A stretch of 64,000 bases of DNA from a virus. The position numbers and the translations under genes were made by a program. The stretch's first letter is position 1; each line of letters begins with the position of its first letter. Location: IMG/VR virus record IMGVR_UViG_3300013794_000014, positions 77,060 to 141,059 of that record; one strand, written 5' to 3'. The notes beneath the pieces are model-generated. The model did not search any database, was not told the DNA's origin, and saw only the letters and a program-made list of their open reading frames with translations. Positions 3,003-55,961 of the stretch are shown piece after piece.

Positions 3003-3058
3003 ATAAACAAATAAATAAACGAATAAATAAACGAATAAACAAATAAACGAACAGGTGA
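3003..3058 (+). repeat. TAAA/CGAA/CAAA tetranucleotide-type repeat ending in the SD of nrdD
   Basis: ataaacaaataaataaacgaataaataaacgaataaacaaataaacgaacaggtga. Confidence 0.7.
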
Positions 3059-3064
3059 TTTCTA

Positions 3065-4888
3065 ATGTTTTCAACCGATACTTTCATTGACATATTGTTT
3101 CAACCCTATGACAAAGAAAATGCAAACCTTATTGATGCTAACATAACAAAGGAAATACTTGTAACCGGGCATGTTGAAAAAGAACTATTCTTGAAACATT
3201 TTTTACCGAAATACTGTGAAAAAGGTGAAGAAGTTGCTAAAGCACATATTGACGGTTTCATACATCTACATGACTTGAATTATGCATTGACAAGGGCAAA
3301 TTGTCTTCAACACCCTATCGATTTAGTATTCAAATACGGTTTAAAAGCACTTTCATGTGTTAGTAATCCAGCAAGACGTCTCGGTTCCGCCCTTAGCCAT
3401 GCAGTTAACGCCATTGCAATTAGTCAAGGACATTTATGTGGTGGACAGGCAATCAGTCTGTTTAACGTCTTGTTAGCACCCTATGCACATGGACTATCAT
3501 ACGATGAAATTAAGCAACAAGTTCAAAGTTTCATTTATCAATTGAACCAAATTAATCCAAGTAGAGGTTTTCAAAGTGCATTTTCATCCATAAACTGCGA
3601 ATATCACATACCTAAGTTTATTGCTAACGAAACTATCGAATATGGGCCTCAAAAAGGTAATTGTTTTGGTGACTTTGAAGAAGAAAGCCGACTACTACTA
3701 AAAGCCATTATTGAAGTATTACTGGAAAAGGATGCTGAAGGCAAACCACATTTGTTTCCGAATACAATAACGGTTATTAGGGATAATGTAGATCCAGACG
3801 ATGAACTATTACAACTTGTCATACGTTGTAACTTAGAAACCAATAACACATATTACCTAAATATGGTTCAGTATGGTAAGAATTTAGCAAATGCTATGGG
3901 TTGTAGAACTTGGCTTGATGATACGTTTACCGGTAACTATCTATTAGATTCAATGGGTTGTGGAAACTTCGAATATGGTACAATAAACCTACCAAGAGTA
4001 GCACTATTACATTTGCAAACAGGTAAACCTATTGAAGAACTACTTAGAGAAGCTGTAGAACTGATTTTCAGAGGTTTACTTGTAAGACGTCAAATCATTT
4101 GGAGCCGCTTTCTATCTAACGAATATCCATTTTATACTGCTTACTATGAAGAAAGTCGTGGTTATTACTATAACATCCCATACACTACAATGTCCATTGG
4201 TTTTGTCGGTATGTATGAATTCCTGAAAATCTTACAATGGGATACAAAAGAACGTATCAAAGTCTATGAAGTGTTAACACAAACGCTTAATGAACTAAAA
4301 CAGAAAACATATGAAGAAATTGCCGAAGAATTGGGTGTACAGTACAAATCACCAGTAGAAGAATACACAAGAACAAGTTTGATAGCAACTCCAGCTGAAG
4401 GTTGTGCACACCGCCTAAGAATGAAAGACAATGAAATATTTGGACGTAAAATGTTAACACGCTTAGTTGGTAACGATTATCCATACTATGTAAACAGTGA
4501 TCATTGGCCTGAATGGATACAAACTCACGTCATGAAGAAAATCAAGTATGAAGAACTTGGACATATGTATTGCAATGGTGGTAACATATCACATTTATGG
4601 CTTACTGATTCGGTTGATACTATTGACTATAATCATTTGGCAAAATTTGTCATTAGTACATGTCATAAGACAAAACTAAGATACTTTTCATTTAATCCAG
4701 TAATTGTCTATTGTAAAGAATGTAAGAAAACGTATATTGGTAGTCAATACGAAGTTAACTGTAAATTCTGTGGCCAACCTGATATAACGTTTTATTCAAA
4801 AGTAACTGGATATGTCAGTGAAACGAAGCGTTGGAATCCTGGAAAGAAAGCCGAACTAAAGAATCGTAGAAGTGTACTACTTGACTAA
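3065..4888 (+). CDS. nrdD: class III anaerobic ribonucleoside-triphosphate reductase, no obvious ATP cone
   Basis: HLHDL, ANC, MGCR active-site loop, TINLPR, TPAEG, C-terminal Zn CxxC..CxxC, glycyl-radical loop YSKVTGYV. Confidence 0.95.
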   Translation: MFSTDTFIDILFQPYDKENANLIDANITKEILVTGHVEKELFLKHFLPKYCEKGEEVAKAHIDGFIHLHDLNYALTRANCLQHPIDLVFKYGLKALSCVSNPARRLGSALSHAVNAIAISQGHLCGGQAISLFNVLLAPYAHGLSYDEIKQQVQSFIYQLNQINPSRGFQSAFSSINCEYHIPKFIANETIEYGPQKGNCFGDFEEESRLLLKAIIEVLLEKDAEGKPHLFPNTITVIRDNVDPDDELLQLVIRCNLETNNTYYLNMVQYGKNLANAMGCRTWLDDTFTGNYLLDSMGCGNFEYGTINLPRVALLHLQTGKPIEELLREAVELIFRGLLVRRQIIWSRFLSNEYPFYTAYYEESRGYYYNIPYTTMSIGFVGMYEFLKILQWDTKERIKVYEVLTQTLNELKQKTYEEIAEELGVQYKSPVEEYTRTSLIATPAEGCAHRLRMKDNEIFGRKMLTRLVGNDYPYYVNSDHWPEWIQTHVMKKIKYEELGHMYCNGGNISHLWLTDSVDTIDYNHLAKFVISTCHKTKLRYFSFNPVIVYCKECKKTYIGSQYEVNCKFCGQPDITFYSKVTGYVSETKRWNPGKKAELKNRRSVLLD

Positions 4889-4897
4889 GGTGTTACA

Positions 4898-5476
4898 ATG
4901 TCTATAATGTCCATAGTGTCCACAACGTCTACATTGTCTAAGTGGTTAATGGAGCCGAATTTACGCTTCAATTTTCCACATAACCACATTTCTTTTGTAC
5001 TATATTATCCTAAATGTAATTGTAACTGTTTTTACTGTAACTTAAAAAAAGTTTTTATTGGTTGTATACCATTTGACTGGAACAGTCTGGAGCTATCATT
5101 ACCTTTCATTGATTGTATAGTTGTTAGTGGTGGAGAACCATTATTGGCATTTCACGACATATTGACATTCCAAGAATTTGCAAGACAACATGACTTATGG
5201 TTCTATGTCTATACAAACGGTTTCAATGCTTCCAAAATAAGCCAATTACTTGATAACTATGAAAAAACGATAATTGTCATTGATGTAAAAGGGAGTACAA
5301 TTGAACAAATTAATGAAACAACAAGATCAAATCTAGGTGAACAGATAATACAAACATATAAAGCATTTTGTAATCACGATAGAGTTGTATTCAGAGTCAA
5401 CGAATACGTAAATGAATATGTAAAACCTTTAGATTTCAAAAATGTAGAAAAGTACAAAATAGTAGAGGTGAGGTGA
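4898..5476 (+). CDS. nrdG: radical SAM activase of class III RNR
   Basis: CNCNCFYC (CxxxCxxC), SGGEP, YTNG; directly follows nrdD. Confidence 0.88.
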   Translation: MSIMSIVSTTSTLSKWLMEPNLRFNFPHNHISFVLYYPKCNCNCFYCNLKKVFIGCIPFDWNSLELSLPFIDCIVVSGGEPLLAFHDILTFQEFARQHDLWFYVYTNGFNASKISQLLDNYEKTIIVIDVKGSTIEQINETTRSNLGEQIIQTYKAFCNHDRVVFRVNEYVNEYVKPLDFKNVEKYKIVEVR

Positions 5477-5480
5477 AATA

Positions 5481-6209
5481 ATGCCATATTTGTTAGCCGA
5501 TACACACGTTGAAACCAATGAACAATATCAAATACTTGTCAATTGGATACATAGGTTAGCAGAAGATGATGACGTCATATTACTTGGCGACATAATGGAT
5601 TTTACCAAAATACCTTACATGAAACTTGAATATATGGTTAATGATTTTGATCATCCGCATATCTATTACGTCTATGGTAACCACGACATTATTGCAAAAG
5701 AACTTGGTTTCAAATGTTATGGTAGACTAAAATATGATGGCATACTTTTTGAACATGGACATAGATTTGAGGCGTTATTGAGATCAACTGGATTCACAAC
5801 ACCAAATGAATACAATGAACTCTATGAACGTCTCTGCTATGAACTAAACACTATTGGTATCTTGACTAAAATCAGTTGGCATATTTGGAACTTTATTACA
5901 CATTGGAAGCGTAACTTACATAAAGCAGAAATGTCCAAAGAATTATTTGAGTTAACAACTAAAATTGGAAATGTTGTCTTAGGACATACTCATTATGAAA
6001 TGTATTCAAAGACAAGAAGGGTGTTGTTCTGTGATGATGCAAGAATCCCAGATTTACCAATTTCTGGAAGAACAACTTCAAAGAATAAACCAGTGGGGTA
6101 TTTCTTACGAACGGATACCTTTGACGTGGAAAGATTTGAACTCAATCCCAGAGCAGATATACGTCCTGCACTTAACGCCAAAAGAAATTGTCTATACAAC
6201 CGATCCTAA
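5481..6209 (+). CDS. calcineurin-like metallophosphoesterase
   Basis: ADTH, LGDIMD, GNHD, EHGH, GHTH. Confidence 0.9.
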   Translation: MPYLLADTHVETNEQYQILVNWIHRLAEDDDVILLGDIMDFTKIPYMKLEYMVNDFDHPHIYYVYGNHDIIAKELGFKCYGRLKYDGILFEHGHRFEALLRSTGFTTPNEYNELYERLCYELNTIGILTKISWHIWNFITHWKRNLHKAEMSKELFELTTKIGNVVLGHTHYEMYSKTRRVLFCDDARIPDLPISGRTTSKNKPVGYFLRTDTFDVERFELNPRADIRPALNAKRNCLYNRS

Positions 6210-6651
6210 TTTGAAAAAACTATATAATGCTACAGTAACGAAAACTGAAGATGAAATCACTGTAAACATAATATGGCTTAAATGCTTATATATTGATGAC
6301 GTCAAAGTATGGTCAAATATCGTGTTCGCTTACAAGTGTTTAAAGTTTAATTCTAATTGGGCACAAAAAACCAATTTACTTGTCGACTCAATGTTATTGA
6401 CAATAACATGTACTAAAAACAATGAAGTTACAATTGAACCACACGTAATGAATGTAGTAAAACCGCGACTTTCTAAAAGACCGACGAGTAAACTAATGAT
6501 AAAAGAAGTATCAAAGATCTATAAGCAACTGAAACGGTTACAAAATGAAATAGCTGAAAGAGGAGAGGTATTTGTAACGTCTTGGGGTATTCCATTGAAC
6601 GAAACCGAATTAACTGAAATAATGCGGTTATTGGAGAAAGTAAAAAGGTGA
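6031..6651 (+). CDS. hypothetical protein (start uncertain; overlaps upstream gene by about 180 nt)
   Basis: ORF 5995..6651; GGGTG SD precedes GTG/ATG/ATG at 6031-6039. Confidence 0.55.
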   Translation: MMMQESQIYQFLEEQLQRINQWGISYERIPLTWKDLNSIPEQIYVLHLTPKEIVYTTDPNLKKLYNATVTKTEDEITVNIIWLKCLYIDDVKVWSNIVFAYKCLKFNSNWAQKTNLLVDSMLLTITCTKNNEVTIEPHVMNVVKPRLSKRPTSKLMIKEVSKIYKQLKRLQNEIAERGEVFVTSWGIPLNETELTEIMRLLEKVKR

Positions 6652-6654
6652 TAG

Positions 6655-7665
6655 TTGATGTCTAATCTGTTAACTAAGTATAAACCTAAAACGTTAGATG
6701 AATTACCGTTACCAGATAATACTATAAGAACGTTGAAAAATATATTGGAGTTCAAAGGTGGAGTTTACATATTTCATTCACCGCCAGGTACAGGTAAATC
6801 AACTGCATGTGACATTATTAGAAAAGAAGCGATCAAGAAACTAGGATCAGCAAACATATTGTTAATAAACGGTTCAATGGAAAATACTGTAGACGTAATT
6901 GTAAACAAAATACAGCCGTTTGTAAGTAAAGCCCCAAGGCGTCTTGTAATCATTGAAGAAGCCGACAAAATGACTAAAGAAACTGGTAAAGGTAAAGGAG
7001 CACAAGAAGCATTGAAAGATTTGACAACTAGAACAATACATAAAGTAACATGGATTTTTGTCACTAACCATTTAGAAGACATTATATTGCCTTTACGTGA
7101 TAGAGCAATTATCATTGAATTTAAACCTGATGAATTCAAAATATTAGAGATCTTAAAGCGTATAAACGCAAAAGAACACTTAGGCTATTCTATTGAAAAA
7201 CTGAAATCTATAGTTAAAACAACATATCCGTCGATCCGAAATGCAATATTGAAACTGGAAGGCGTTGAAATTCGACAGTTCGATGAAGCCCAATTAATGA
7301 AGGACTTAAAACGCCTCGTTGAAGACAGTATACATCCCAAAGTATTCTGTGAAAAATATAAAAGCGTCAATATACGAACAATTATTCATTATTTGACCGA
7401 TATTGGATATCAGTACTTCGATCCTGACATTTATACACGCCTCTTACTTATATCAAGTTTTATCAGTGATATAAAAGATGAACAATTGGCATATGTAACA
7501 TTTGCATATTTAGTCAATCAGATGAATAAAGAACATTGGCAACTAATTATCGATGAAATTTGTGCTACGACTATATCGATTAAGTCAATATCAGCACGAT
7601 TTTACCAGAAATTACAGGAATTTAACTCAAAGAAAAATAAAGTGAAAAAACCGAAAGGTGATTAA
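6655..7665 (+). CDS. rfcS: AAA+ clamp loader, RFC small-subunit-like
   Basis: KYKPKTLDE, Walker A SPPGTGKST, Walker B IIEEADKMT, AQEALK, PLRDRA. Confidence 0.88.
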   Translation: MMSNLLTKYKPKTLDELPLPDNTIRTLKNILEFKGGVYIFHSPPGTGKSTACDIIRKEAIKKLGSANILLINGSMENTVDVIVNKIQPFVSKAPRRLVIIEEADKMTKETGKGKGAQEALKDLTTRTIHKVTWIFVTNHLEDIILPLRDRAIIIEFKPDEFKILEILKRINAKEHLGYSIEKLKSIVKTTYPSIRNAILKLEGVEIRQFDEAQLMKDLKRLVEDSIHPKVFCEKYKSVNIRTIIHYLTDIGYQYFDPDIYTRLLLISSFISDIKDEQLAYVTFAYLVNQMNKEHWQLIIDEICATTISIKSISARFYQKLQEFNSKKNKVKKPKGD

Positions 7666-11799: not shown

Positions 11800-14700
11800 T
11801 TAAATCTGCCATATGTATGGTTGTACAGATGAAATCTGTGAAACTACGTTTGAAACAATTGAACTTACTGATGAAATAATATTCATCTGTTGAGTATTGA
11901 GCGCTGTCAAAGTAGTGGACGTGTGCATTGCCATCGTTTGTTTCAAATTATTCTCTAAACTTTGAAATCCCTGTGTAATTGAATTGGTTAATGCATTGAG
12001 ACTACTTTCAAGTTTTGTTGCCAACGTATTTATCGAATCTGATATTAACTGTCCTACAGCCTTAATAGCCTGTATCTGTTTATTCATTTGTCGTATAATA
12101 GATATCGTTGAATTTTGTATTTTCGTTACAATTGCACCCGCTGTTGAAGTGATTTCGTTTTTGATTTCAACCAATTTCTGTCCTAAGGTTGTTGTATTTT
12201 GACTTATAGCATTAGTTATCTGTACTGTATTTTCACTTAGTTTTGTAATTACTGATTCGGATTTTTGCCTTAATACATTGTATATTTGTGATAACAACTG
12301 AGTGGTTGGCTGTTTCTTCTGCTCATATTTCTGTTTATCTTGTTGTTGAGTTTGTTGTACATTATCTTGTGTTGTAGTTTGTGACTTGTCCTTATTCTGT
12401 AATTCTGTTTTAATTACATTTATGTCTACTACCATTTTCTTATATTCCTCTAAGTAGTTAGTTTCTATTTCCTCTAGTTTTGTAATTAGTTTATCTTCAG
12501 TTTCAGATTGTTGTACTAATCCAGATAACAAGTTTGCAAGAAGCTCAATTAATACACCACCACCACCAAAAATCGGTTGTGATATAATTGATGATGATTC
12601 TTCTTCAGTTTCTGTCACATTCGTTGGTATACTTTGTTCCGATGTACTTTGTTCTATTGCCTGTATATCCTTATAATACCGATAAGTGTCCCAACCAAGT
12701 AATGCTGCATCAATTGCAACTGAAGCTGCAGTACCAACAACCGGTACATTAGCAACAATTCCAGAGGCTAGTTCACCAAGTGCACCTATCCAATCTCCTT
12801 CTTGCCATCTCTGATATGCAAAAATACCACTCGTTACTGTACTAACAATTGGTATTTTCTTGAGTATACTCTTACCAGCAGCTTTTGCCGCTTGTTTTGC
12901 AGCCTGTTTTGTTGTAACGTGTGAATAAATACTTGTTCCAAGTGAAATTATATCTGATATTATATTGCCCTGGTGATATTCGTGTAGTTCCTGTACATCT
13001 TGCGGTGTTACAGCTACAGTTTCGTCTGTTGGAGATGATGGTTGTGACGTTGGATCAAATTCTAATCCTAATGATGGTGCCACAGGAATAAGTACTGGTG
13101 CTACTATCTTACCATAACGTGTCTTAAGTAATGTTCTAAACCACCTGTTATCTGTAAGTGATCCTGCTGCTTTTGTAATAGATTCTGGTACCTGAATTTT
13201 AGGAAGTCGTATGTCTTCAAGGAAACTTTTCACCTTCCCTATAATTCCTTTACCTTTACCTTTCTTCTTACCGCCACCTTTACCCTTACCTTTTCCTTCA
13301 TCGTCATCATCCTCATCGCCCCAACCAAAGATTTTACCTAATGCCCACTCAGCTGTTGGTTCAAGGGCCGCATAAAGCCCGTAGAGTATTCCAGATTGCC
13401 AATCACCCGATGCAAACGAATACAACGATGTAGCTGCTGCTCCAAGAGCTGATAATTTAGCACTTGTTGAAAAGAACTTTTTAAGTGCTTTTTTAATACT
13501 ACCTGTTTTCTTATATTCGGTATATGCAGCTTTACCACCACCAATTGTAGAAACAATACCAGTAGCCTGAGCTACCCTATTTATATTCTGTGAAGTTTCC
13601 ATTTTACGTTTATTTTCTTTTATACGATTAACTATTTCTTCTGTGTTATCTACATTCCATTCATCTTGCCAATGTTCCACGTATGATTCAAATGTTTGTG
13701 TATCAACCACTCTAATGTTACCACTTTCATCAGCATATACAATTATGTTCTCTTTCTTGTAAGCTGGTTCTCCCCATGGTGTTACAATTTTTTCTGCACC
13801 TGCTGTTACATTAGCTAAAAACGTATATGGATCAGCACCAATTTGTTCAGCATATGTGTAAATGTCCATCCCTAAATCGCTTGGTAACAAGTAATCGTAT
13901 TTAACCTTAGGTGTTTCAGCAAATGGTGATACAGCTGTACCTGCTATTGCACCAACAATTGCATTGACTATTGCAGACTTAATACCCTTTCCGATACCAT
14001 ATTGGAACCCTATTGCTGCAGCATTAATTGTCGGCCCTAAATTAATACCTGTATCTTCATAAACTTCCTTAATCCACTGGTCAAGTGAATGTTGAATCTT
14101 ATCGCCAAACAACGAGTTGAGTATTAGTTGTATTAGATTACCTTGCGGTGTGTAACCCAATGTTGATTCTACAGCATGTCCATATAAACCTAAGCGTGTA
14201 TATTCGTTAAACCTGACAAAGTCACTTAAACTTAAAGTAGCCTGTCCATATTTGAATAGATATCTAAATGGTGCTGAATCGGCAATTTTTCCTAATTGTG
14301 GTATATACTTACTTAGATCGTTTAATACTGTTCCAAAGGCCGTTGGAACCGTTACCATGTAGTCTAATGTATTTAAGGATTGTTCCCAACCAAACTTTGG
14401 CATGTTATATCCGAATATTGGTTGCTCAGGAAGTGGCCTCCAACCAATTGTATGTCCTAATATCTCGTTGATAGTAACCATCCATGCAGTTCCTCTATAC
14501 ATATGTGGAGCATACTTACGTAATATCGGGAATTTCTCATAAAATGACTCTTCTAACATGTTTTCGTATGCAACTATTCTTACAAATGTTCTACCGGGAT
14601 AAAATGGTTTATTCATAGATGCATCAACTTGTTTCCGATATCGTTCTATGAGTTCATTGTTATCAGTAGTGAGCGGTAAACCAAATCTTTCAACTCCAAC

Positions 14701-17700
14701 TGTATCTGAGGTACCAAACATTGTACGCATTTCATATTCAATAGGTAAATACCAATGTTTACTAAATACAGAGGTATCAACAGGTGTTTCTCGTGCAATT
14801 TTGTTGTATTTCTCTAATGTTGATTCAATATCATGTACAATTTGTGTTTTCACCTGTACATCTGGGCCTTCTACTTTAATCTGTTTAACAATTTCTTGTA
14901 ACTTCTGTAGTTCGATAACGGCATCATGAATACTCATTTTACCTTCTTCAACTGCAATTTTAATTTCATCTAACGCTAAAACAACCTTATCTAAGTCATT
15001 TAGGTTCGTTGTCGTTGTTCTATCTGTTCCTAATTCTGATTCAGGTACAAATCTGTTTTCTATGGATGTACCATCTATGAACCTACTTTCAGTACCAATT
15101 TCAGGAATACCAAATGCGTGATACTTGAAAACATCAATTATTGTACGTATTTTAGTAAATATAGATGTCTTAGCTGGTTCATTGTCAACTAACGTGGATT
15201 TAATACCTTGATCTGGCCTTTCTTCAATAGTACTAATGTCTACACTTTGAAGTTCAGGCCCACCCTGTGTCGTTGATTTTTCTGGTGTAGTTACTTCTGG
15301 GAAATACTTTCTAACGATACTGTCGTTTGTTGGCACTGTCTGTGGTCCCCAGAAGCTAAGTAAGTCAACAATAGATGTAAGTAACAGTAAGTTTGGTAGG
15401 TATTGTAAAACGGATGACGTAATTGCTGATACATTGTCTACAAGATTAATGAAATGTTGTTTTGTATCAACTTGCAGATCAACTGTCACTACTGATGCTG
15501 ATTCTGATTCTTGTGTTAACATATTTTGTGGTTGTGGTTGTATTGGTGTTGATGTCGACGTATTTTGCATCTGCTGTAACTGTGATTGTAACTGTGGTAT
15601 GAGATTTGTCAATAATCCAACGAAGGCAGAAATACCAATGATTGCACCAGTAAATGCAACTGCATGTATAGGTGAAATTACACCTCTTTTTGATCTAATA
15701 TAATCTTCAAATGCATCTCTATGAATACTCTTATAGTATTCATGTACAAATGACGGTTTTTGATGTATATACCGTTTTTCTAATTGTTGTAAATAGTTAA
15801 ACATATGTGCTAAATTCTCATCATTATGTTGTTTTCTAAATGTACGCTTTGTAATCCTATCGTAGTAACTAGTAGGGAATGCTTTATGATTAGAGTGTGT
15901 TGGTATCTCAGGTAATGTACGTACTCTTCTCCTCTTTTTACTCGTTTTATTTAACTCTATATTTCCGTTTTTAATATGGACTGTCGTTCCAGTAAGGTTA
16001 CTTAATGCTATGATTGCGCTCTGAACTGCTTTTGTAAACCTTTGCAAACTAATACGTGAACGTGATGTCGTCTTAGTATGCAACGTAACGGCCCATACTG
16101 CCTGCATAATACCCGTTACTAATGATCCTAACGTGATTCCTAGTGCTGTGAGCAAATTCATTATACTGAATATCCCTTCGAACATTTGTAATCCTGCTCC
16201 AAATGCTGCACCTCTTGCAGTATCTATTACCATACTAGTAGCTGATTCAACTGCTTCTTTACCTAAAGGAGTTTGTAGTACTTGTTCTCCTAATTTTGTT
16301 AAATGCTGTGTACGTTCGTCTTCTGTAATTTCAAATGAAGCTTGTAATGCGTTTATCATCATCTCTGTTTGTTTAACAATTTCATTGATACGGTATGTAT
16401 ATGATGTACCCATTATATGTGCAACCGTAACAGAATCTGGTAATTCTTGCAAGTTCTTTACCAATAATGTCGGTTCCTCTTTTTCTTTGATCATTGCCTG
16501 TATTGTCTTACTTAACGCTCCAAAGTCAATTTTCAGTCCAAGTACCTTAGTAACAGATAGCAGTAAACTATAAATTGCTGATAATATATCTGCAATTAAT
16601 CCTAACTTTCCAATAATTCTATCAGCCGCTGATGCAACTAATGGTGATTCATATCCATATTTGATATCAACTAACGTTCTTAAGTAAGCTGATGCAGTAG
16701 ACCACGCTAAATATCCTGCCCATTTTTGTTTTGCCGTCTCGTCTTCACCTGGAGCTGCTGCTACAATTTTATTGAATGCTGTTTGTGCTGTCTGTAACGT
16801 TTGTTGTGTAGGTTGTGGTACTGACGTTAGGCGTCCCACTAGCGTTTGTTCTTGCTTTCCAGTTAGTACATCGACAAATTCACTTGGACTTTGATAATAC
16901 GTCGCAACCTCCATTAATGCTGCAAATTCCTTCAATGAAAGACTTGATACAGCTTTTAAGTAACTCATACCTCCTACTGGATGTAATACGTGGTAACTTG
17001 GCATTGAAGCTAATCGTACACCAATTGCTCTAGCATATGCATAAGCGTTTGTTGGTACTTCACCGAAAATCTGATCAAGTTTCTTTTCTACTGCTTGTTC
17101 TGTTCTTCCACCCATATCACGAACACTTTGAATTGACCACATTGACCACATCATACCTAAAGCAGACATTAGAGAGCCTACCAATGTATGAGCAAGCATT
17201 TGAACGCCACTATGTATATGTTTCAAAAACTCCGTTGCGAACGTTGCAGTAGCATATATGTCGGCCCATTTCTCAGAAACGCCTGCATCAAGTAATTGTT
17301 GCCTTGTTTGTTTTTTAATAACCTGTAATTTATGAACAACATCTGCACCAGGACGCTGTGCCAGCTGAGATCCAATTTGTGCACGTGCTTCCTGTACAAG
17401 TTCATTTACACGCTCAGACATCACTTCTGCTTGTTTATTTATCTGTTCACTCGTTTTACTAAACTGTTTTTGTGCTTCTTGTAAACGTCTAGTTAATTCT
17501 GGTATCTCATCCTTCATATTACTAATAGTCTTATTCAATGCATTAAAGTCTGCTATAATCTCACTTAAAGCATCACCTACTGAGGTTATTCTTGGTTCAT
17601 TGAAGAATGGTAAATTTTGTTTAAGCGTTTCTGCAATCTCTTCTTTTGGTATTCCTAAATGCTTATGTAGTAGGTCAATGACGTCATAAATCGCCATACC

Positions 17701-20700
17701 TTCTGATATTTTTTCAACGTCAAATGGTACACCTACGTCTTCTGAAATTTTACTTACAACTTTACGTACTCGATCTACTTGTTGCCCTGTAATAACCCAG
17801 TTTCGTGATTCATAGACAAGTGCTTTTCGATAAATCTCATCAGCAACAGATCGTCCAAATGCTTTTTGTAACGCCTCTTTAATCGTTAAGTTTTTTCTTG
17901 TGCCATACCGTTCTTGTAGCTCCGAAATTATATCTTGCGCATATGAACCTGCTGTCTTTAACTTAAGTCTTGTCTTAATAACGTCTTGAATTTCTGCTTT
18001 TTGCATATGTTCACGTATTACGTTGTAAAATGCAGGACCCAACGCTTCATGTAAGAATAATGCACGAGTTAAAACCCTTTCTTGCTGTGACAATCTTGGT
18101 ACTGCTAAATTTTTAGTGCCAGGAATCTCTTTCAAATCTTCTGGGTATAACATTGCAAACAAAGATAATAGTGAGTTACCGGTATTTTGTTGTTGTAGAT
18201 ATTCTAAATAACGTGGTATATTTGTCTGTCGTATTGTGTCTTGAAGCATTCCTAAGACTAAGTTGGTTGAAACGTGTCTCATACGTTGATTTAACCCTTC
18301 TATAATTGCTGCATGGAATGGTGCTAATTCTGGCCCAAACTGAATAAACGCATCAAGTGTTCTTGATTTCATAATTAAGTTCATTCTGTATAATTGGTTC
18401 AATAAATCCATTGTTGTCTGTACTTGCTGTAACTGTTCAATTGCTGCTTTAGTAAAGTCAAATGAACTTAAGGCACCAGTTGTAATAGTAATAGTACGAT
18501 GTTGCATCAACGGCACTGTTAATTCAACACCTTGTAATGCATGTGCTAAATGTACACTTTTATTTGCCAAATTACCTAAATCTTTTGCAACATCATGTAT
18601 ACTTCTACTTGAACGGCTTGCAATTTCACCTAGTCCTTGAATTACATCAGATAGAACAACTATATTGTCTGCAGCAATTCCAACTGCAAGTCTCAATGAT
18701 TCCCTGACATTTTCGTTTGTAATGAACTCGAACGCTTTTCGTATATCTTTATCTTTTATATGCGGTATTAACTGTTCGAGGTGTGTAATATTCTTTACGT
18801 CTTCAATACCAAATTGTCTAGCTAAATGTGAAATTAAAATACCTTCTGCAATAGTTTTCTGATTTGCAGGTAAGTTTTCGAGTACTCCAATTATAGCGGC
18901 ATAAGTTGTTAAGTTTTCAAGGAAACCACCTTTACCTTCTTCTTTGATTCTTTGTAATGTGCCGTGGAAGACAGAAGCCACATCTTTTGTTTCACGAATC
19001 TTTTCAATCACTGAGGAATATATGTTGGTAGCCAACTCTATATTCATTGCTCCTTCTCTTGCATAACTGTTAATCCGTTCAAAATGATCCTGCATGCTCT
19101 GTAATGCTGTAACGGTTCTAATTAACCTTTCATATGTTGTAACATGTGGTGCAGTAACCAACCTAAATCCTGAATACCAATCACCAGACATTGCAGCTGT
19201 TACATTACGTACAAGATCCTTGAATTTTTCAGAATATTCATGCTGCAAATACTGGCCTTTTGCAATTTGCTTTATAATAGTATCCATATCAACTGCAAAG
19301 TGCTCAGATAAACCTTCTACAACCTCTGAGAATTCTTTTGTAACGACAATTGCTTGTTTTAAAGCCCTTCTGAAGTCTTCAACACTTTGTATCAATGGCC
19401 TATTTCCAACCCAAGCTTTCATTGCAGCTTCCATTATACTACCAACTACTATTGCTTCACCTGGTTTTATTCCTGACGTTGAAGTTGCAAACTCAGAGGC
19501 ATGTGCTAATAAAGTACCAGTTAAATGTTCAATAAGTGCCTTATGCTGTTTAGGTAATGATGATACATAAGTGATAGGCCCAATTGTATTCGGTGTCAAT
19601 ATACGTTCAACTATTTCAGCAATAGCAGTGGCTGTTACTCCGGCCGCAATACCTGCAAACGGATTTGCTGTCAGTAATCCTGTTGCTGCACCGATTGACA
19701 TACCCAACAACGCTTTTAACAAGAATCCACCCTTTTTTGAACCTCCGACTTCTACACCTAACGCTGCATAATGTTCAAATTTATCACCGCGAATTTCTTG
19801 CAATATCTTGTCTAATTGATTCATATCACCTGCGGTTATTTCCTTAATCTGTGAAATATCGTAAATTTCTGTAGCTTTTATTCCAGTTCCATGATAATGT
19901 TCTATTGCATAGAGGAACTTATTACCATGTTCCTGTTTAAGTGCAGTAAGATTCAATAACTGTCCAGCATATTTTGCCTTATACGTATGTCCTAAAATAA
20001 TTATGTCGCCTTCATCGCCTTTATCGCCTTTTTTGCCACTCATTCGTAACTCAACGAATGGAGCCAACTGTATTTGTTCATCAGTTTTTTCTTTTAGATC
20101 TCTAGCAAGGTCCCCCCAATCCTTTTTTATGTCCTCAATACTATGTTGCATTGAAAGTAGTTCGTGGTTTCCGAGTACTAAATAGATGCGCGCATCACCA
20201 ATACGTTTTTTGACATTTTCCCATTCTGATGCAAGTCGTTCTACAAAACTCATTGCACGTTCAGCGTCGTCGGCCCAATCACCAGCCAATATGACGGTTT
20301 TACCAAGTTGCGATAATCTTTCAAGTTGCTGTACAAATTCTTCAAACGATTTTGCATGTAAATCGCCTTGAACAACAATTCTACGTGCTCTTAATTGTTG
20401 TAGTCTAATTTGTGATTCAGCTGAACGGATCATATTTGATATCAATTTAGATGATACTATTGTGTCAATTTGTTCTGGTGTTAAATCTGATTTCTTCAAA
20501 TACGTTTCTAATTGCTGTGAAACATATGTTTGTGGTGATAATCGTCCAGTTTCTCTAGCTTGTTTATAGTATTCCATAATACGTTCAGGTATCCGCAATT
20601 GAGAAACACGTTCTATTAAACCTATGTTTGTAAATCCTATTTCTAAGTTGCTTGGTAACGGTATTTGTTGTCCTGGTCCTAAGGAAATGTAATAATGTCC

Positions 20701-23700
20701 TGCGCCCTTTTCAGTTTTACTTTCTGTTATCAAATTACGTAAAACTTCCCACATGTATACTTGTGCTAATCTGAGATTATCTAAGAACTCCTCTCTGTTT
20801 AATTGCATACCAGAACGCATTTTATTTAATAACTCTAGTACATTAGATGTTGACGTACCAAAGACATGTGAATAAACTACATTTTCGATTATGCTTTCGA
20901 CTTCAGTAAATTTAGCCGGCCCAATACTTTCTACAAGCGTTGATTTTTCAACTTCTCGTAATCTTTGACGAACTTTATCAGTCAACTTGTTTACAACTGT
21001 ATCTAGATCTGTTAACTTTTCTTTTAACTTTTCTTTTTCTTTTTCTGTAACCCCAAGTTTAGTAACAGCTCTATTACCAAGTATATCCGTTATTTTGTAG
21101 TAGCGTATTAACGGACTTTCTTCTGTAGACAAATATGTTGCTAACCTCAGTTCTAATGGTGTCATTATTTTTGTTACAATACGGTCAATTGGTTCAATGA
21201 ACAATTGTGAACTTACAACTGCACCTTTCGCTAGTAATTCTGTAGGAGCTGTTGCTATCGCTGTTGCCTCACCAATGAACTGTGATATTTGTTTTCTGAT
21301 TGATTCTGGGACTTTATACATGTCAACTTGTGCTTCTGAAAGCAATTTAGCTGCTTGCTGGAAATTACCCTCAACCAAATGTTCAAATGCTTTATTTAAC
21401 TTGTCAATTAGTAGTTTCGTGTTAACATCAACTGGACTTGATACAAGTGTGCGCTCAAATTCGTTAAACCTCACTTTCAAATGTTCTGCATACATGCGGT
21501 AAAGGTTGGTACTAGAAATGATCTGGTGTATAATCTCATTAGCCTGTCGTGCAAACTCTATGATCTGCTGTCCACCATCCTTTGTAACTAAGAATAACTC
21601 ATAGAAACCTTTACTGTACACTTCGTCTAGAAACTTAGTGATATAATGCCATTGTTGTCTATAATTTCTAATAAGATTTGTATCAGGTAGTTTCATGTAA
21701 CCAATTAAGTCTTTAATGTGTTGTTCAGATTCAGGTATTTCACTTAAATACTGAGTAATTTGTTGGTATAACTTGCTAATCTTTTCTGCAATGTTTTCGG
21801 GAACGTCGATCAGTAAGTCTTCTTGTCCCAATGCTTGTCTAATAATCCTGTTTACATATTCGTTTGCAGAATACTTACCCATGTCCAAATATCTTGCTAA
21901 GAATAGTGGTGCTGCTGATCTTAAGTTTTGTAAATATGCAGTACGCTTTTCACTAGTAACATTCTGTAATGCTTCATGTACTTTGACTATATGCTGTAGG
22001 TGTCCTTGTCTAATTCCAACGAGTTCAACAAGCTGGCGTACACCTTCATCAAGTTGTACAGTTTCTCCTCGGATTTGTCGTATTTTCTCAATGATTCCTA
22101 CCCTACTCATAAGAATTTCACGTAGTAAGTTCCAGTTAAATTTACCTGGTTCTGTAGCAAACAACTGTGGAGTTCTTGTTATTCTGATTAAATTCTGTAA
22201 GTAAGGCAAAAATGTGTTTATATCTTCTGGCCCAATTTCAGTTTCTTGTAACGACTCATATGTCCTAGTCCATATTTCACGTATATCCGATAAATTCATT
22301 ACATCTTTGACTAAACTTAAGTGTTCCAACGACTTATAGTATTTGAGTCCGAAATTAACAAGATCAATTAGTATATCTAAATCCTGGTCTGAAAATTCAA
22401 TGGAAAGTTTCTGTGCAATTTCTTGTAGATCCTGTAATTCTTGTGTATACTTTTTAAACATCTCCTGGAGTTTTTCACTCTTTTTAATTAAGTCACGGTA
22501 TTCTTCCTTTCGTAACTCAGTGGCTGGAATTCTTGTAACTGTCTGTGATAACACTTTGAACAAAAATTCTTGTCTATCTAGAAGATCTTGTTCGGTTGCA
22601 AATGGCCCTAGTGCTCTAGCCATTTCTTGTAGTACAGGTTCGAAAAACGGTAAAATTTGTTCACGTATCTTTTGATCCTTTCTAGCCAACTTCAAGCGAT
22701 TAATAGCATATAGCACAATATCCTTGAGATATGGTTCTCTCGTAGGTTCTGTTTTAGGAACTTCAGAGTCAACTATATCTTTTATATCTTTTGCAATGCC
22801 TTCTGGCTCTTTCCTTCCATACTGTTCTTTCAAATACTCAACATATTTGTCAAATGCAGCATAGAATTTTTGTATAAACTGTTCTGCTTGCTGTGGCGTT
22901 ACACTGTACAACTGTGAAATTGACTGTACTACCTGATCAATCATTGCTTTAGTTGGGCCAACTTTTGTTGATAAAAGCTTAACACTACGTGCTGCAGCTA
23001 TTTCAGATTCTATTTGATCAATAGTCTCTTTTATCAACGGATTAATTTCTTGTAACTCTTTTATTCGTTTTACAATTCTTCCATCGTACATAGCTAATGC
23101 CTGTGGGCTAAATTGTTCTAATTTCTCAAAGACATCTCTATACCGTTTTGGAAGTTTTTCAAAGAATTCAGGTCCTAGTAACGTCCGTAACTGTTCATAT
23201 GTAGATTTAGCACTTATTGCAAATGCAAGTTCCATTAATTTACGATCAGGAGCAATTTCTAATGCCATACGTCCATAGTATCTACGATCAAGATAAGGTG
23301 AAAGTGGTGTACCTAATACTGGTAGTTCTCGCTCCCATGCACTTATATCTTTCATGTATTTTGTCAATAAGTATTTATCCAAATAATGTGGAAACATACG
23401 TTTTGCATATTCTTTTGGTATCTCTATTCCTTCTGGTGCTCCTTCGCGTGTAAGTTGAGTCAAGAAACCTAATGTCATGAACTCTCCCAACATACGGATT
23501 TTCTGTTGTTCCGGTTTTGTTTTTGGTTTATATCCCATTAACATCGCTACTTCTTCTGCCGTTAATGCTTGTGCTTCGAAACCCATTTCTGACAATTTTG
23601 ATACAATGACATCTAAAAGCTGTTTCACTGTTTTTGGTTTAGAACTTTCCATTACTGCTTGAGTAACTTCTTGACTAATAAGGTACCATACATCAGGTCT

Positions 23701-26700
23701 GATATTACCAAATTTCATAGTTGGTAATTTCGTTGTAGCCGTAGTATGTTTACCAATATATGTCTTAGGTGAAGTTCCTACAAATGCAACTCTATATACT
23801 TGATCCATTACATTGTCCCAAATTTCTGCAATTAACATTTTTCCTCTACGATCCATGAATCGTATATCTCGATAGTTAACACGTTCTATTTGGCCAGTTT
23901 CTAAGTCTTTGACATATAACCTTATTGCTCCACTGAATTCACGATACAGATCTCTAAGATTCTCAAATTTCGTATAAAACAAAACTTGCATCCCTGTTTG
24001 TTCTTTGACAAATTCACTTACACCACGCATATACTCCATAAGTAAACGCTTATTGCCTTTCGGTAGTTGGACGTTCAATTCTAATTCTTTTAGAATATCT
24101 GTACTAAAGTATCCAAATTGTTTGGCTATAAAGTTTGTAAAGTCTATGACTCCTTGAATTTGTGTTAACCAACGATCTAGTTGATGTTTAAATACAGATT
24201 TTTCAATTAATTGTGGGACAGTTGTAAACTTAACGTTCAAGATATCAGAAAACTGTCTAGCAATCAATCGTGTCAATTTACGTGGTGTTACTGCTTGCTC
24301 CAGTTCTACATATGGCACTTGCATTTCCTTTAGCGTCTTTACAATCGTATATGCCTCATAAGCAGATTCTGATTCACGTAATCGCTTAAAGAGTTCTTTT
24401 GCTACCATATCACGTGATTTTACGAGGCCACTGTAAAATGGCCTCAACGTTGGCGGTATAACTGACTTGTCACCAGCAATCCATGCTTTATAGTATATTC
24501 GTTCAAGATCCGATGTCAAAAACATCATTGTTCTTAGAGCAAGTTCCATAGGCGTTGCTAACTTACTAAATCCTGCCCAACGACTTCGTAACGGTACCAC
24601 TCTTTCTGTTATTAGTAAATCTGATAACCACGGATATTGTCTCGTCAAAAATGCAACTACATCAAACCGCTCTCTACTTGTTACGTTACGTGCAGTTAGT
24701 ATCGACTGTACATACTCAATGTCTTTTACAATGTACTCTTTTAGTTGCTGTGTAGTCTTTCCAGCTGATTGACCTAACTCTTCTAATGCTTTTACTACTT
24801 GTTCTAATGCGTGTTTAACTTTTTGTGCGTCTAATAATGGTTCTTTTGGTGAAGTGTATAGTGCCTTGTAAAGATCCATTACTTGAGTTAAAAACATACG
24901 AGACATTTGTCTATGTACATCTTCTGTTATTGGACCTTGATATACTGCTTCTAACTGTTTAACTGATCTTTTAAGTAAATTATTAACTATGTTTTTAAAC
25001 CTTTCATTGACATCTTGAATACCCTGAGACATACCCATCAACTCGGCTAATTCTGTTTGTAAAATTCGTCTAAAGTCTTCAAATAACTTATACTTCCTGA
25101 TTTTCTGAATATCTTCATGACTCAATGATATATCTCCTAAATATTGATCTGTTACATAATCCAAAATAGAACGATATCCAAATAATGGTTCAAGTTGTAG
25201 ATAAATAGCTACGGCAATCGTGGATGGTATATGTAATCGCTGTTTAACAGGATATGCATATTCACTTAACATCTGAGTTGGATCATTACTTGTCGTGATC
25301 GATACACGCATTTTTACATTGCCATTTTTATCAGATTCTATGAACATAAATAAGTCAAAACTACGTGCCCAAACTTTTGCAACGTTAAATATACTGTCAT
25401 CTTTGTACCCCAACATTTGGAATACAGGCCTAAGTGCTTCATATAACAATACAGTCAATAACATCTTATGTGCCTTATAGATTACTACATCTTCCCTTTC
25501 ACGGAATTTATACCATGTATTTTGTACAACGTGATCTCTAATTTGTATTGTACCTAAAGGTAAGTTGTCATCTCTTTTTGTAAATATGGCAAGCATTTTA
25601 TCTTTTAGTTTATCTTTTACAAGTTCTTCTATGATAGATGCCCAAAGTCTTGAACCGGTACTAAGAGGCGCTAATAGTACACCAAGATCTAGTTTCTGCC
25701 TCTCACCCTTCAACAACTGTAAAAATTGTTTTTTAAGTTCATCTACATTTACTAATTGTATTTTGTACTTTAATTCTCGATATTCAGGCAGTTGCTCTAT
25801 TATTTCCTTAAACTTGTCATCAACAACCAGAGTGATAGGCATTGTACCAACAGCTAAGTCCCAGCCTCTTTCCAATAGCATTTTTGCTAGTTCCGCCGGT
25901 ATAGATTCAGTAGGCATTCCTGCAAGGTGGAACATTTTCATTGTTGATTGTGTAAGTCTTTCTCCAAGCAATTTTTGTACTTCTGGTAACAGTCCACCCA
26001 CTAAACTGAAATGCTTGACATCTGCATACACATTATGATTAATTTCAGTAATTTCAATTGTGTTAGCCTTTATTTGAGCTTTTATGTTACCGGAAAATCT
26101 ACTTGTATCAAACAGCTTTTCTAAGTACTCACATTGATCTTCAGTTAATACAACAGAAACAGTATCATACTTTTCTTTAAGTGTTCCTGCTAATTGAATT
26201 TCCTTTCTTGACGCATAATAGATCTTATGTGGTTCTTTCCTGTCGACTACTAATGTAATTTCTTCTGTCGGTGAACCAGCTGTTAATGCGGCATATATGG
26301 CTGGGAACTTAACGTACACATCTACAACTCTGCTTGGAATATTTTGTCTATGTGTATCTTCCGTCCTCTTACCTAAAACGTAAACTATTGGTCCGGCTTG
26401 AATAACTGGCCTAGTTGGCACATTCCTACCAACAAACATTCGTATAGGTAATTGTAGTCGTGACTCACCAGAACCACGTTCAGTTACATAATGTCCTGGG
26501 AACGATGCCTTTTCCACTGTAAGTAACGTCTCTATTGTTGCTTCTAAGAGTTGTACTAGTTGTTCCCGTTCCTGTCTGTTCCGTGTACATAAACGTGCAA
26601 TATTTCGACAGAAGTTCTTGAATTTTGTTTTATCATGCAATTCAAAACCCATATCTTCCTTAAGACTTGGTCTAAATCCGATTTGATACAAGAACCCTAG

Positions 26701-29700
26701 TGTACCACTGTAATCTTCATCTTTATATGTCTTCGGTACTTCATAGGTACGTCCTTCATAACTGAATACTACTTTTGTTAACATGTCATGTATTTGGAAT
26801 CTGAAAGGTTCTAGTCCAACCATTTTCAAGGCGTCTTGTATTACTGCCGTCAAATTACTCATAAGGAAGAGTTCTGTCGTACCATGCTCAAGACGTGTAA
26901 TTGTGATCAGATTACTGTAAATTACGTCAATTGGAATTGTTTTGTTACGTTTTTTGAACTCGTCTATGAGTTTCTTCAAATCACTAGGTACATGTTCCTT
27001 GACCTTCTCATAAAATTCCTCTAGATTAATTTCCAAGAAAGTTGTACGTTCTTTTGCTAGAATTTGTAGACGCTTAATACTTTCTTCACGGATAGCTTGT
27101 TGATCAGCTTTTATACCATACATTGCTGCTAATATCTGTAAATATGCTGAATACAATGATGGCTGTATTTCTCCGCCCTGTCCTTTTTGTCCTGCAGGTA
27201 ATGTCCACTTTGGATTTGCAAATTCGTAGATACCTGTTACTAACATTTGGTATCTACCAGCAACTTTTGTAATTCCCGTGATTATTCCTCCTACTTTCTG
27301 TGGTAACTGTTCTGTAATCACTGAATTGGATTTAGGATCGTATTTGTAAATTACTGTGTTACTATTGACAATTACCGCACGTACTCCAGTTTTCTTTGCA
27401 ATATCTATCAACGACATTCTACCTTTGACATGTTCAACAGTATAGTTATTTCGTACAATATAGAAGTTTTGTAATTCGATTTGTGAAAGGTTTGTTCCAA
27501 GATCTAATGCCTTAGTACTTAGGATTGGTGCTTGTATTTCATATAAGTTTCCGAGTAGGTCTTTAAGTATTTCGTTTACGTTATTAAAACTGAATCGTTC
27601 TTGTACATTCTTTGCAGTTTGTGGATCAAGTTTCTCTAAGGCCTTACTAATAGCAGTTTTCAATTTAGTACGTTTACCTCCAATATTGATCAATACTGCG
27701 TCTTCAATGTTAAAGGCTGTCAAATCAACCATTGCAACGTTAAGTGGTATCTCTTCGCCTTTCCCACCAAATATTGTTAAGTTTGGCATTTTACCAATTG
27801 CTTGTGACCAATTAATAGATTGTCCCCAGTTTTCAAGTAAGTAATTCAAACTCCTTATTAATGCATTATATGCTTGTTTAACCGCAATTTCAACCCTCGG
27901 CATTGTAACATTTGGAACATATGATGTAAGTCCTTCTGCTAACGCCAATGGAATTAACGGCAAATACCCATCGTTAACTGTTACATTTCTTGCCAATTGT
28001 ACTAAAGCATTTTTCAACGTCCTTAGTGCCATATGACTTACGTAATCAAATGAAACTGTAATATGCCCTGCGTATCCACAGTCATTAAGAAGTTTATTGA
28101 GTTCATTTATCTTACTTTGAATAAAAGCTTGAACTTCTGAAAACGACTTTCCATCTGACAACATTTTAACGGCTTCTACATGTATAATTGCTAATCTACC
28201 TGCTACAAGGCGTTTCATGTTTTCAATACCTTCTATATACTTAGAAGAATATTTCGGTTTCTTTATTGGTTGTATATCGTTAACTCCTTTTATCGTTATT
28301 ACAGGAATTGCTAACACATATGGATGTAAAAGTATGTATTCTAATGTCCGATAGTACTCCTTTACATTCTGAACATTAATTTCTGAAAACAGATTTTTTA
28401 ATTCCTTATAATACTTCAATCTTTTTATTTGGTTGTTTAATTGATCAAAGTCCAATTTGCGAATCTTTTTCTGCATGTACTTTTTGATTTTACTGTAATG
28501 CGACATTAACAACTCTAATTCACGCTTCAACTGTATATTTGACTTTACATCATAGATGTCAATTACTGGCAATCCCACCTCCAATGTTAAACTAGTAGTT
28601 GCACGCTGATGTAACAGTACGGTTTTCAACGTCTTGATAGTAGTTCCTGGTTTAACTGACATTTCTTTAATCCATTTTTCAACTTTTTGTGTCAGGTGTT
28701 TAAGGGCTGTTTGACTTGCTCCAAACGTTTCAAGTTCCCCTGTTATATCTAACAGTGTAATCTTTTGTTCAGGACGGAAACTACTTATGCCTTCAATATT
28801 TTGTTTAATATAGAAGTTTGCTTTATCTACTACAATTTCAGCCAATGCATTAATATAGGCCTTACGCTGTTTTTCATCACTTAACGTTTCAATTAGTTTT
28901 TGAAGTTCCTTAGATAATTTTACTTGATCTCCTTCCAATTTTATACCTAAACGTTCTAATTTTGTTTGAATTTGATTCAAGTCTATCTGTTGGCGATCTT
29001 TCTGCAATTCGTTGTATATATTACGCAATTCATTAAGGTTATTTTGTAGACGTGTAAGAAACTCAGGCGAAATACCCATCTTTTTCAATGCATTCTCAAT
29101 TACTTTTAATTTCTCTATAGTTTGCATATCCTCAATAAACTTAGATGGATCGATACCTCTCTGTATCATTTCTACAGCAGCCAACATTACAAACGTATCG
29201 TAATATTGCGCAACTTGTCCTGGTAACGCTACTGCTACACCTCTTAGGAAGATACCTTCAATTTGTTGTAAAGTATTCAATAAGTCATCGTATAGATCAC
29301 CAGTCAATAACGAATGTCGTGTAATTCCAAACGCATATGCTAAATCTCTAATTTTTTCACTATCAGATGCTAATAACTGTGCTAAATTGACTTTTTTTCC
29401 TTTCAGTACTTCACTGACTATATTGTACATTACTTCTGTCATTAGTAACAATGACCCAGAAGAAGCACCAGCTGCTCTTCCAGTCTTTGCGTTAACAAAC
29501 ATAGTAAGAGCCATCATTACAAGATGTTTTGGTTTACCTCTAAGTTTAAGTGCAGCTTGGAATAAACTCCAATCATGTATAAGTAAGTCATCTAGGGACA
29601 TTGTTTTGTTACCAACTTTAACTTGAATCTTACGTGCTTCTTCAATACCAATCCAGTCTTCCAAGATACTGTAGAAGTTAGCACCTAACTCGGAGACAAG

Positions 29701-55956: not shown

Positions 55957-55961
55957 TCCGA

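Follow-up and report, generated by a model that had tools for sequence, protein, structure and literature searches.

The DNA analysed here, called the window below, is a 64,000-nt stretch of IMG/VR virus record IMGVR_UViG_3300013794_000014, a single 141,059-bp contig with 33% GC, whose final 64 kb make up the window. The subject of this study is a giant open reading frame (ORF) on its minus strand, whose N-terminal part resembles the two catalytic halves of a cellular RNA polymerase (RNAP) and whose C-terminal part resembles tail-associated proteins of phages. The contig carries a direct terminal repeat of ~93 bp (genome 1-93 and 140967-141059) and is assigned in IMG/VR to the class DTR (direct terminal repeat), 100% complete. 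The giant ORF and its RNAP-like features are as follows.

Window 11800-32670, minus strand: giant ORF, 6956 aa in one unbroken frame
Window 26071-32670, minus strand: N-terminal RNAP module (roughly residues 1-2200), with an approximate boundary drawn where homology with a relative, L011, ends (residue 2193)
Window 30913-32142, minus strand: β′-like (RpoA'/Rpb1-like) region, residues 177-586, from Pfam and hhalign
Window 31489-31503, minus strand: DYDGD (D390, D392, D394), residues 390-394, putative Mg-binding aspartate triad of a β′-type barrel
Window 27157-27981, minus strand: β-like (RpoB'/Rpb2 domain 6-like) region, residues 1564-1838, from hhalign and conserved motifs
Window 26881-26934, minus strand: PIDVIYSNLITITRLEHG (PIDVI...R, with R at 1925), residues 1913-1930, candidate counterpart of RpoB PDLIINPHAIPSRMTIG

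The ORF starts with a TTG codon, and a Shine-Dalgarno-like GGGTGAT is located 6 nt upstream. We compared it with Logan contigs that had been independently assembled from four public runs, all of one sample, which is possibly the source of this DNA. Because these contigs tile window 12671-32670 at an identity of at least 99% with no indels or joints, the giant frame is not a frameshift artefact. A chimeric assembly was likewise rejected on the basis of the 20.9-kb open frame, the indel-free independent contigs and relatives that cross internal junctions; the transition from the RNAP part to the sequence after residue 2193 was seen in one sample only. No RNA run is listed among the public runs carrying this DNA. 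The RNAP blocks (residues ~180-1930) and the tape-measure matches and hydrophobic segments described below (4315-6946) are parts of the same ORF.

Two RNA polymerase-like blocks in one chain

The first block showed similarity to β′-type subunits by several methods. Pfam RNA_pol_Rpb1_2 (PF00623) matched residues 229-399 (window 31474-31986) with 32.4 bits, and with 34.1 bits in a second scan, the cut-off being 25.3. In an hhalign comparison with a profile made of five archaeal RpoA' sequences and E. coli beta', giant residues 177-586 were paired with RpoA' 276-695 at a score of 50.8 (E 2.5e-5), while shuffled queries scored 17.3 ± 2.6. A HMMER search of residues 1-1200 against 1.84 billion representatives returned two short fragments of relatives and six weak matches, and all six of the latter were genuine Rpb1-type large subunits matching at giant residues ~300-440. 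Characteristic motifs of the block are NTLGRR (210-215), VPAKIAKEL (243-251), LRYPVL (351-356) and NLDYDGD (388-394). In the alignment with RpoA' (alignment A6), NTLGRRAIN...VPAKIAKELLIP was placed over NLAGKRVNF...VPEEIAKELTVP, and RYPVLGE...FNLDYDGDKM over RQPSLHR...YNADFDGDEM, with LRYPVL and NLDYDGD paired with NRQPSLH and NADFDGD. The DYDGD motif is therefore aligned with the NADFDGD of archaeal RpoA', and it also aligns with DFDGD (779-783) of gp96, a protein of Thermus phage P23-45 that is discussed below. The block has both the signature RxP...(N/D)xDxDGD of a β′-type barrel and homology to Rpb1 domain 2, and as far as its sequence can tell, homology of this half to the catalytic region of cellular RNAPs is solid.

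The second block is real, judging from its sequence, and is much more diverged than the first. We aligned the giant protein together with L011 by hhalign to an RpoB profile of 13 sequences, consisting of RpoB' of Methanococcales and Methanopyri genomes and E. coli beta, and obtained one co-linear alignment of giant residues ~1564-1838 with RpoB' 134-395 (score 30.6, E 0.005). None of 154 column shuffles, which scored 16.8 ± 2.8 with a maximum of 25.5, reached this value, and the reversed query scored 16.4. The correct site was also recovered, at E 0.15, when the block was compared with just E. coli beta, and at E 0.33 in a comparison with the β ORF of a small split RNAP encoded by the same genome (see below). 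The β motifs are P1571, P1591-R1592...K1598-Q1599, NVAMVDLTAFNIEDAVLIN (1644-1662), FNIED (1653-1657) and K1821-x7-K1829 in GQKG, both lysines being located inside PKWTLPAGQKGQGG. The profile alignment registers PR..KQ with APR...AMAKQ, NVAMVDLTAFNIEDAVLIN with VVAIMSYEGYNMEDAFIFN, and PKWTLPAGQKGQGG with DKFASRHGQKGVIG. Across 15 viral and archaeal rows (alignment A7), P1571, R1592, N1644, A1646, K1821 and G1827-Q-K-G1830 were invariant and E1656-D-A1658 nearly so. Two lysines, an NxED strand and Rpb2 domain 6 homology, as in a β-type barrel, were thus found, with weaker support than for the β′ half because Pfam PF00562 (Rpb2_6) gave no match. We consider it very likely, from these similarities, that the block is homologous to the catalytic region of RpoB.

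The sequence-only reading of this DNA had proposed that both halves of a cellular-type RNAP active site lie in one chain with β′ first. All the motifs it cited were located at their places in the one 6956-aa ORF, and the Pfam score of the first block and the hhalign scores of both blocks relative to shuffles bear out the proposed arrangement.

Relatives of the giant gene are scarce. L011 (a 2205-nt contig of ENA ERZ3624297; P0010), which was found by a k-mer homology search with residues 1560-2010, is the only one that covers the β block and is 38% identical to the giant protein over residues 1466-2193. The segments best conserved between the two are MPR.EIAVKQAYN, NVAMVD.TAF.IEDAVL, P.GQKGQ.G.I.P and ID.IYSN.I.ITRLE, and L011 keeps PIDVIYSNLITITRLEHG as IDLIYSNFIMITRLEQ. 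L011 reads through in one frame, yet has in-frame TAA codons at nt 38, 1340 and 1394, one of them at a position where the giant has Lys (AAA); the coverage of L011 is ~2.6x, and TAA is the commonest stop in the viral genome. Sequencing error, decay of this copy or recoding could account for these codons. Two further relatives, L005 and L006 (JGI 3300013798 and 3300013787), match residues 24-320 and 949-1638 with 35-54% identity; they are short contigs and seem to be frameshifted into 2-3 ORFs. Residues 1042-1055 and 1145-1158 of the giant (KLRGKPKHLVMMAL and VAVALPGQVAQYYD) are strikingly conserved.

No match to residues 1-2300 was obtained by tblastn against 50,697 phage records, k-mer homology searches with the same residues gave no relative, and scans of viral contigs (four queries plus a DNA pattern for DYDGD) and two scans of metagenome contigs found no further relatives. 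Matches to the DNA pattern were unrelated phage proteins with YNFDYDGDKI and were discarded. TerL (the terminase large subunit) of this virus has relatives with 81-100% identity (L007-L010), whose contigs stop before the giant gene. Vent samples in which relatives occur are JGI 3300013787, 3300013798, 3300007776 and 3300003537 and ENA ERZ3624297. The family has hardly been sampled: billions of proteins yielded three short fragments from relatives.

The C-terminal part and the rest of the genome

Beyond the RNAP module, residues ~2200-4090 belong to no recognisable family. The features that follow are listed below.

Window 20098-20382, minus strand: calcineurin-like metallophosphoesterase, residues 4097-4191 (Pfam Metallophos, E 4.4e-7, 30.9 bits, cut-off 21.5; phrog_1649)
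Window 12517-19728, minus strand: hydrophobic region, residues 4315-6718, with eight glycine-zipper-like 19-mers; putative membrane-inserting or ejection part
Window 11833-14088, minus strand: tape-measure-like C-terminus, residues 6195-6946, from PHROG matches

The metallophosphoesterase has intact GDLH, GDWAD and GNHE motifs. A second phosphoesterase is encoded as a free-standing ORF at window 5481-6209 (plus strand). The hydrophobic glycine-zipper segments are confined to residues 4315-6718 of the giant protein, and a poly-Lys/Gly tract occurs at residues 6459-6475. Homology to known tape-measure proteins was found in the C-terminal ~11%: phrog_167, annotated as tail length tape measure protein, matched residues 6195-6946 with E 4.1e-7 and phrog_4200 matched with E 2.8e-3. 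A core of ~80 residues (6581-6662) also matched phrog_23178, phrog_34252 and phrog_18972, which are large tail-associated proteins, at ~1e-13. The giant gene is the last of a minus-strand block that includes the genes for TerL, a Phage_tube_2 tail-tube protein and a coiled-coil scaffold-like protein, and a portal gene is located near this block. A 552-aa ORF (window 43290-44948, minus strand) is located between the tail-tube gene and TerL, and its residues 300-475 match phrog_114, ATP-dependent DNA ligase, with E 6.6e-14, an odd location for a ligase.

These features make it fairly probable that the virion delivers the giant protein and that it serves in tail-length measurement or ejection. 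The sequence-only reading had stated that everything beyond the RNAP looks like a tape measure; support for this comes from the PHROG matches in the last ~750 residues and from the hydrophobic segments, and residues ~2200-4090 carry no annotation. If the protein does act as a ruler, the tail length would, by pure extrapolation, be 0.7-1.1 µm. The lower value (~0.7 µm) is 0.15 nm per residue multiplied by the ~4700 non-RNAP residues, and the upper value (~1.1 µm) applies to all 6956 residues the ratio of P23-45, which a bioRxiv abstract gives as 800 nm per 5002 aa.

The genome appears to encode other RNAP-like proteins, and a repeated motif may be connected with one of them.

Genome 76117-77767, plus strand: second, miniature split RNAP pair, a β′-like ORF followed by an overlapping β-like ORF, ~550 aa in total
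Genome 76117-77010, plus strand, directly upstream of and outside the window: β′-like subunit of the split RNAP, 297 aa, with TRYP...DADIDGD
Window 1-708, plus strand: β-like subunit of the split RNAP, 254 aa; the ORF begins 56 nt before the window
Window 54577-55956 and 55953-57083, plus strand: weak candidate for a third RNAP pair, from motifs only (GRHP...GGDFDGD; K-x7-K in GSKIQNIFLQK)
Window 51647-51662, 52079-52094 and 53347-53362, plus strand: three same-strand copies of the 16-17-nt motif (C/T)GACA(C/T)ACC(A/C)TT(A/C)AGGC

The two ORFs of the split RNAP overlap in an ATGnnTAA-type manner, and their order is again β′ then β. The β-like ORF carries NDAFVL, GDKIGNLHGQKG and VDCLMSLTSVIERG. 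Weak Pfam matches were obtained to PF00562 (Rpb2_6, E 2.8e-4) and PF00623 (Rpb1_2, E 4.9e-4); in addition, the β-like ORF scored 39.2 by hhalign against the RpoB profile, with shuffles at 16.0 ± 2.2, and matched phrog_3295, RNA polymerase beta subunit, with E 1e-5. A second, miniature RNAP split into putative β′ and β subunits is supported by these similarities. In contrast, neither ORF of the third pair matched any Pfam or PHROG family, and the hhalign score of its second ORF against RpoB, 23.5, was within the range of the shuffles (maximum 25.5); a third RNAP is thus not supported by its sequence and is regarded as a lead only. The three motif copies are located in a ~2-kb non-coding strand-switch region (51.4-53.4 kb), the last one ~70 nt upstream of the operon with the third RNAP candidate, and two of them are followed by short GC hairpins. 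At up to 3 mismatches, the 141-kb genome contains no match other than these three, and shuffled genomes gave 0-1. A virus-encoded RNAP might use the motif as a promoter.

Several genes of the virus bear on its host. The tyrosyl-tRNA synthetase (TyrRS; genome 6769-7704, plus strand) is of the short archaeal type (NCBIfam PRK08560, 377 bits, cut-off 220). When it was searched against 185,579 species genomes, the top 15 matches were all from Methanothermococcus, Methanocaldococcus or Methanocaldococcaceae with 60-65% identity, and the next tier, mostly Methanobacteriales, had ~50% identity. A histone-fold gene (CBFD_NFYB_HMF; genome 32183-32341, plus strand; ~74 aa, 34.4 bits) is also present, and its family matched only archaea among 14 control genomes. 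The genes of likely host origin are thus closest to Methanococcales in the case of TyrRS. The clamp loader had its best score with the small subunit of replication factor C (RFC), and PCNA_N was not found in the viral genome. Among deposited viruses, the matches that best cover PolB are haloarchaeal tailed viruses. The DNA is present only in hydrothermal-vent metagenome runs, and its 33% GC fits Methanococcales. The sole tRNA gene of the genome is tRNA-Arg(GCG) at genome 28358-28435, and a tandem repeat with a 24-bp period occurs at the very start of the 141-kb contig.

Interpretation and rival explanations

The explanation that we favour, with slightly more confidence than doubt, is that the giant protein is a virion tape-measure or ejection protein of a ~141-kb Caudoviricetes virus with a probable vent Methanococcales host, and that its N-terminal ~2000-2200 residues constitute a single-chain two-barrel RNAP. 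This RNAP would be derived from the cellular multisubunit type, with the β′ part (DYDGD) first and the β part (NxEDA and two lysines) ~1250 residues later. By analogy with P23-45 gp96, the giant protein would be placed in the tail lumen at assembly and ejected before the DNA, and its hydrophobic C-terminal part would help to build a conduit across the envelope. The N-terminal polymerase, with its two barrels folded and paired, would then engage the entering DNA and make the first transcripts without the host RNAP, TATA-binding protein (TBP) or transcription factor B (TFB). Subsequently, the miniature split RNAP, possibly together with the host enzyme, would take over at least part of the transcription. 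A purely speculative role for the embedded phosphoesterase would be to process nucleotides or envelope components at entry.

A number of observations weigh against this explanation, and those concerning the polymerase are best considered together with the possibility that the N-terminal region is a relic, or a repurposed RNAP-like scaffold without activity, and that transcription is carried out by the host RNAP and/or the small split RNAP. No relative that we found by contig scans with several queries and the DNA pattern spans DYDGD. The β block was missed by Pfam Rpb2_6, by phmmer and by a profile hmmsearch of PDB sequences, and an ESM Atlas feature search with it gave nothing usable; its support consists of one calibrated hhalign score and motifs kept in a single relative. 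Its motifs are altered in part, since the canonical GDK...RHGQKG reads NPKWTLPAGQKG in the giant and NP..PSRM reads SN..ITRLE. The fourth β motif, PIDVI...R, was equated with PDLIINP..PSRM of RpoB solely by visual inspection; neither hhalign nor MAFFT paired it, because an insertion of ~70 residues separates it from GQKG, and splitting the RpoB rows to pair it gave a worse alignment. The β′ and β barrels are ~1250 residues apart, which far exceeds the spacing in any fused RNAP known to us, and neither the bridge helix and trigger loop between them nor the clamp and other Rpb1/Rpb2 domains are recognisable in the giant sequence. Structure prediction failed to help. AlphaFold2 models of residues 1466-2193 (3 rows) and 1560-1955 (15 rows including RpoB' segments) had mean predicted local distance difference test (pLDDT) values of 44.9 and 48.9, respectively, with the motif regions below 50 in both, and were unusable; only an all-β sub-domain at ~1720-1810, at the position of the wall/flap insertion of RpoB, reached 66-84. 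Foldseek against the PDB and VIA-align with the low-confidence second model gave generic helical matches (Z at most 6.4) and were uninformative, and co-folding of the β′ block, the β block and Mg gave a score of 0.00 that bears neither way, the partner's own fold being uncertain. Because of this failure, the paired double-psi β-barrel (DPBB) fold remains predicted only. A relic would also fit the separate small RNAP with better-preserved β motifs in the same genome. However, the key catalytic residues are all present in the giant, namely the D-x-D-x-D triad, the β′ RxP, the two lysines, PR..KQ and E-D-A, and those on the β side are among the segments best conserved in L011 despite 38% overall identity. 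Moreover, P23-45 gp96 is equally undetectable by sequence, lacking cellular-type signatures beyond DxDxD, yet is active (PMC10770324). We therefore regard an inactive N-terminal region as unlikely.

The location of the enzyme and the identity of the host are separate matters. An active virion RNAP might instead belong to an internal head or ejection (pilot) protein, like the N4 virion RNAP (vRNAP) or crAss-like gp66 cargo, with the PHROG matches arising from generic coiled coil or glycine zipper. The tape-measure matches are indeed modest and restricted to the last ~750 residues, where low-complexity helical matches such as Apolipoprotein are also found. TerL and other genes separate the giant gene from the tail-tube gene, and no distal-tail or baseplate genes follow it, an atypical setting for a tape measure. 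On the other hand, none of the other ORFs scanned gave a tape-measure signal, a long tail, for which a ruler is needed, is implied by the Phage_tube_2 tail-tube protein, and gp96, the precedent for a giant protein that combines an RNAP with membrane segments, is a true tape measure (PMC10770324). A pilot protein is accordingly quite improbable in our view. As for the host, a bacterium of the same vent community would have had to acquire TyrRS, histone and the RFC-like clamp loader horizontally, and the giant gene would then be a second bacterial fusion of tape measure and RNAP. Comparison of the 20-kb giant-gene stretch with 40 Methanococcales genomes found no match borne by a CRISPR (clustered regularly interspaced short palindromic repeats) array, and the closest cultured relatives of TerL are Streptomyces phages with 24% identity. 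The best Methanococcales sequence matches to the giant gene were short AT-rich chance matches, the best of them outside any array, and were set aside. Against a bacterial host stand the specific closeness of TyrRS to vent Methanococcales with its clear drop to other archaea, the little use that a short archaeal-type aminoacyl-tRNA synthetase and a histone would have there, and the GC content, the habitat and the PolB matches described above, so that we consider it very improbable. The archaeal host suggested by the sequence-only reading is thus upheld by TyrRS, the histone fold, habitat and GC content, and the spacer check that it had proposed gave no match for the 20-kb giant-gene stretch in 40 Methanococcales genomes. 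From host-like genes and habitat, in spite of the missing spacer match, the host is very probably archaeal, and we consider a member of Methanococcales probable.

Comparison with known systems and significance

For a two-barrel RNAP fused to a tape measure, the precedent named by the sequence-only reading is apt. P23-45 gp96 is a tape-measure protein of 5002 aa, and its N-terminal ~1100 residues were experimentally shown to be a clamp-less two-barrel RNAP, which transcribes the pre-early genes, including the gene of a second, non-virion RNAP (PMC10770324). The giant protein resembles it in being a huge tape-measure-like protein (6956 aa) with a putative N-terminal two-barrel RNAP and membrane-type segments further along, and the two viruses share a thermal habitat and a second, separate two-barrel RNAP (gp64 in P23-45). 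The sequence similarity is limited to the DxDGD barrels, where giant residues 343-403 align with gp96 732-792 in a 62-residue high-scoring segment pair with 34% identity. Outside that barrel we found no similarity between the two proteins, the tape-measure part included, and hhalign of the β block against gp96 1-1200 gave E 0.21. The similarity to the P23-45 virion RNAP is therefore confined to one barrel, and homology does not run across the RNAP and tape-measure parts as it would in a member of the gp96 family.

The barrel order also differs. In gp96, QDE-1 and crAss gp66, DPBB-B precedes DPBB-A, and gp96 has the order DPBB-B, connector, DPBB-A (D779-783) (PMC10770324). The order is reversed in the giant protein, with the DxDxD barrel at ~350-400 first and the β-type barrel at ~1640-1930 second, and its RNAP module is about twice as long as that of gp96, with a spacer of ~1250 residues. 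Furthermore, unlike gp96, the giant protein has a Pfam Rpb1_2 match, the NLxGKR-like NTLGRR, PR..KQ, NxEDA and GQKG, and by virtue of these retained cellular-type signatures its RNAP would be placed closer to the multisubunit clade than to that of phages and QDE-1. It carries a metallophosphoesterase where gp96 has a metallopeptidase, and its host is probably archaeal, whereas gp96 is from a Thermus phage.

Compared with cellular RNAP subunits (archaeal RpoA'/RpoB', bacterial beta'/beta and Rpb1/Rpb2), both regions of the giant protein are statistically related and their key residues align. The giant differs in being a single chain, with β′ before β, that is fused to a virion protein, while cellular operons run β then β′. 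To our knowledge, natural RNAP fusions also run β then β′. A limited literature search found no described case of a two-barrel RNAP with the order β′ then β, which amounts to absence of evidence.

Jumbo phages such as phiKZ and AR9 inject a virion RNAP for host-independent transcription and have a non-virion RNAP in addition (PMC7598289, PMC4666361). Like the present virus, they encode two-barrel RNAPs of the cellular type and a second enzyme; their enzymes, however, are assembled from 4-5 individual polypeptides and carried in the head, unlike the fusion to a tail protein proposed here, and comparison with deposited phages gave no sequence match. The crAss-like gp66 (bioRxiv 10.1101/2020.03.07.982082) and the N4 vRNAP resemble the giant as very large virion proteins with an RNAP for early transcription. 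However, gp66 belongs to the QDE-1-like clade with its β-like barrel first, the N4 enzyme is a T7-like right-hand polymerase, and neither is a tape measure.

Archaeal viruses have been described as encoding no RNAP and depending wholly on the host enzyme (PMC5569661; bioRxiv 10.1101/2021.07.29.453957), in agreement with the sequence-only reading, to which no described archaeal virus with its own two-barrel RNAP was known, and we found no later exception in the literature. That this is the first archaeal virus with its own transcription machinery, consisting of a tape-measure-fused virion RNAP and at least one miniature split RNAP, with early infection free of host RNAP, TBP and TFB, and with a fusion that arose independently of that in P23-45 from a β′/β pair joined in the opposite way, is a proposal to which we assign an even chance.

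If active, the enzyme would be the first RNAP known from an archaeal virus, and if it is also injected by a methanogen virus, the statement of reviews that archaeal viruses encode no RNAP would be overturned and host-independent viral transcription in archaea would be opened to experiment. The giant gene would represent a second, independently evolved fusion of RNAP and tape measure, which suggests that viruses with very long tails have repeatedly arrived at transcription during ejection. The order β′ then β would mean that reversal of the chain topology is compatible with the two-barrel core, and the split RNAP, with ~550 residues in total, would rank among the smallest two-barrel RNAPs. The reversed order and the tiny split enzyme would both bear on the design of minimal RNAPs and on models of the ancestral enzyme.

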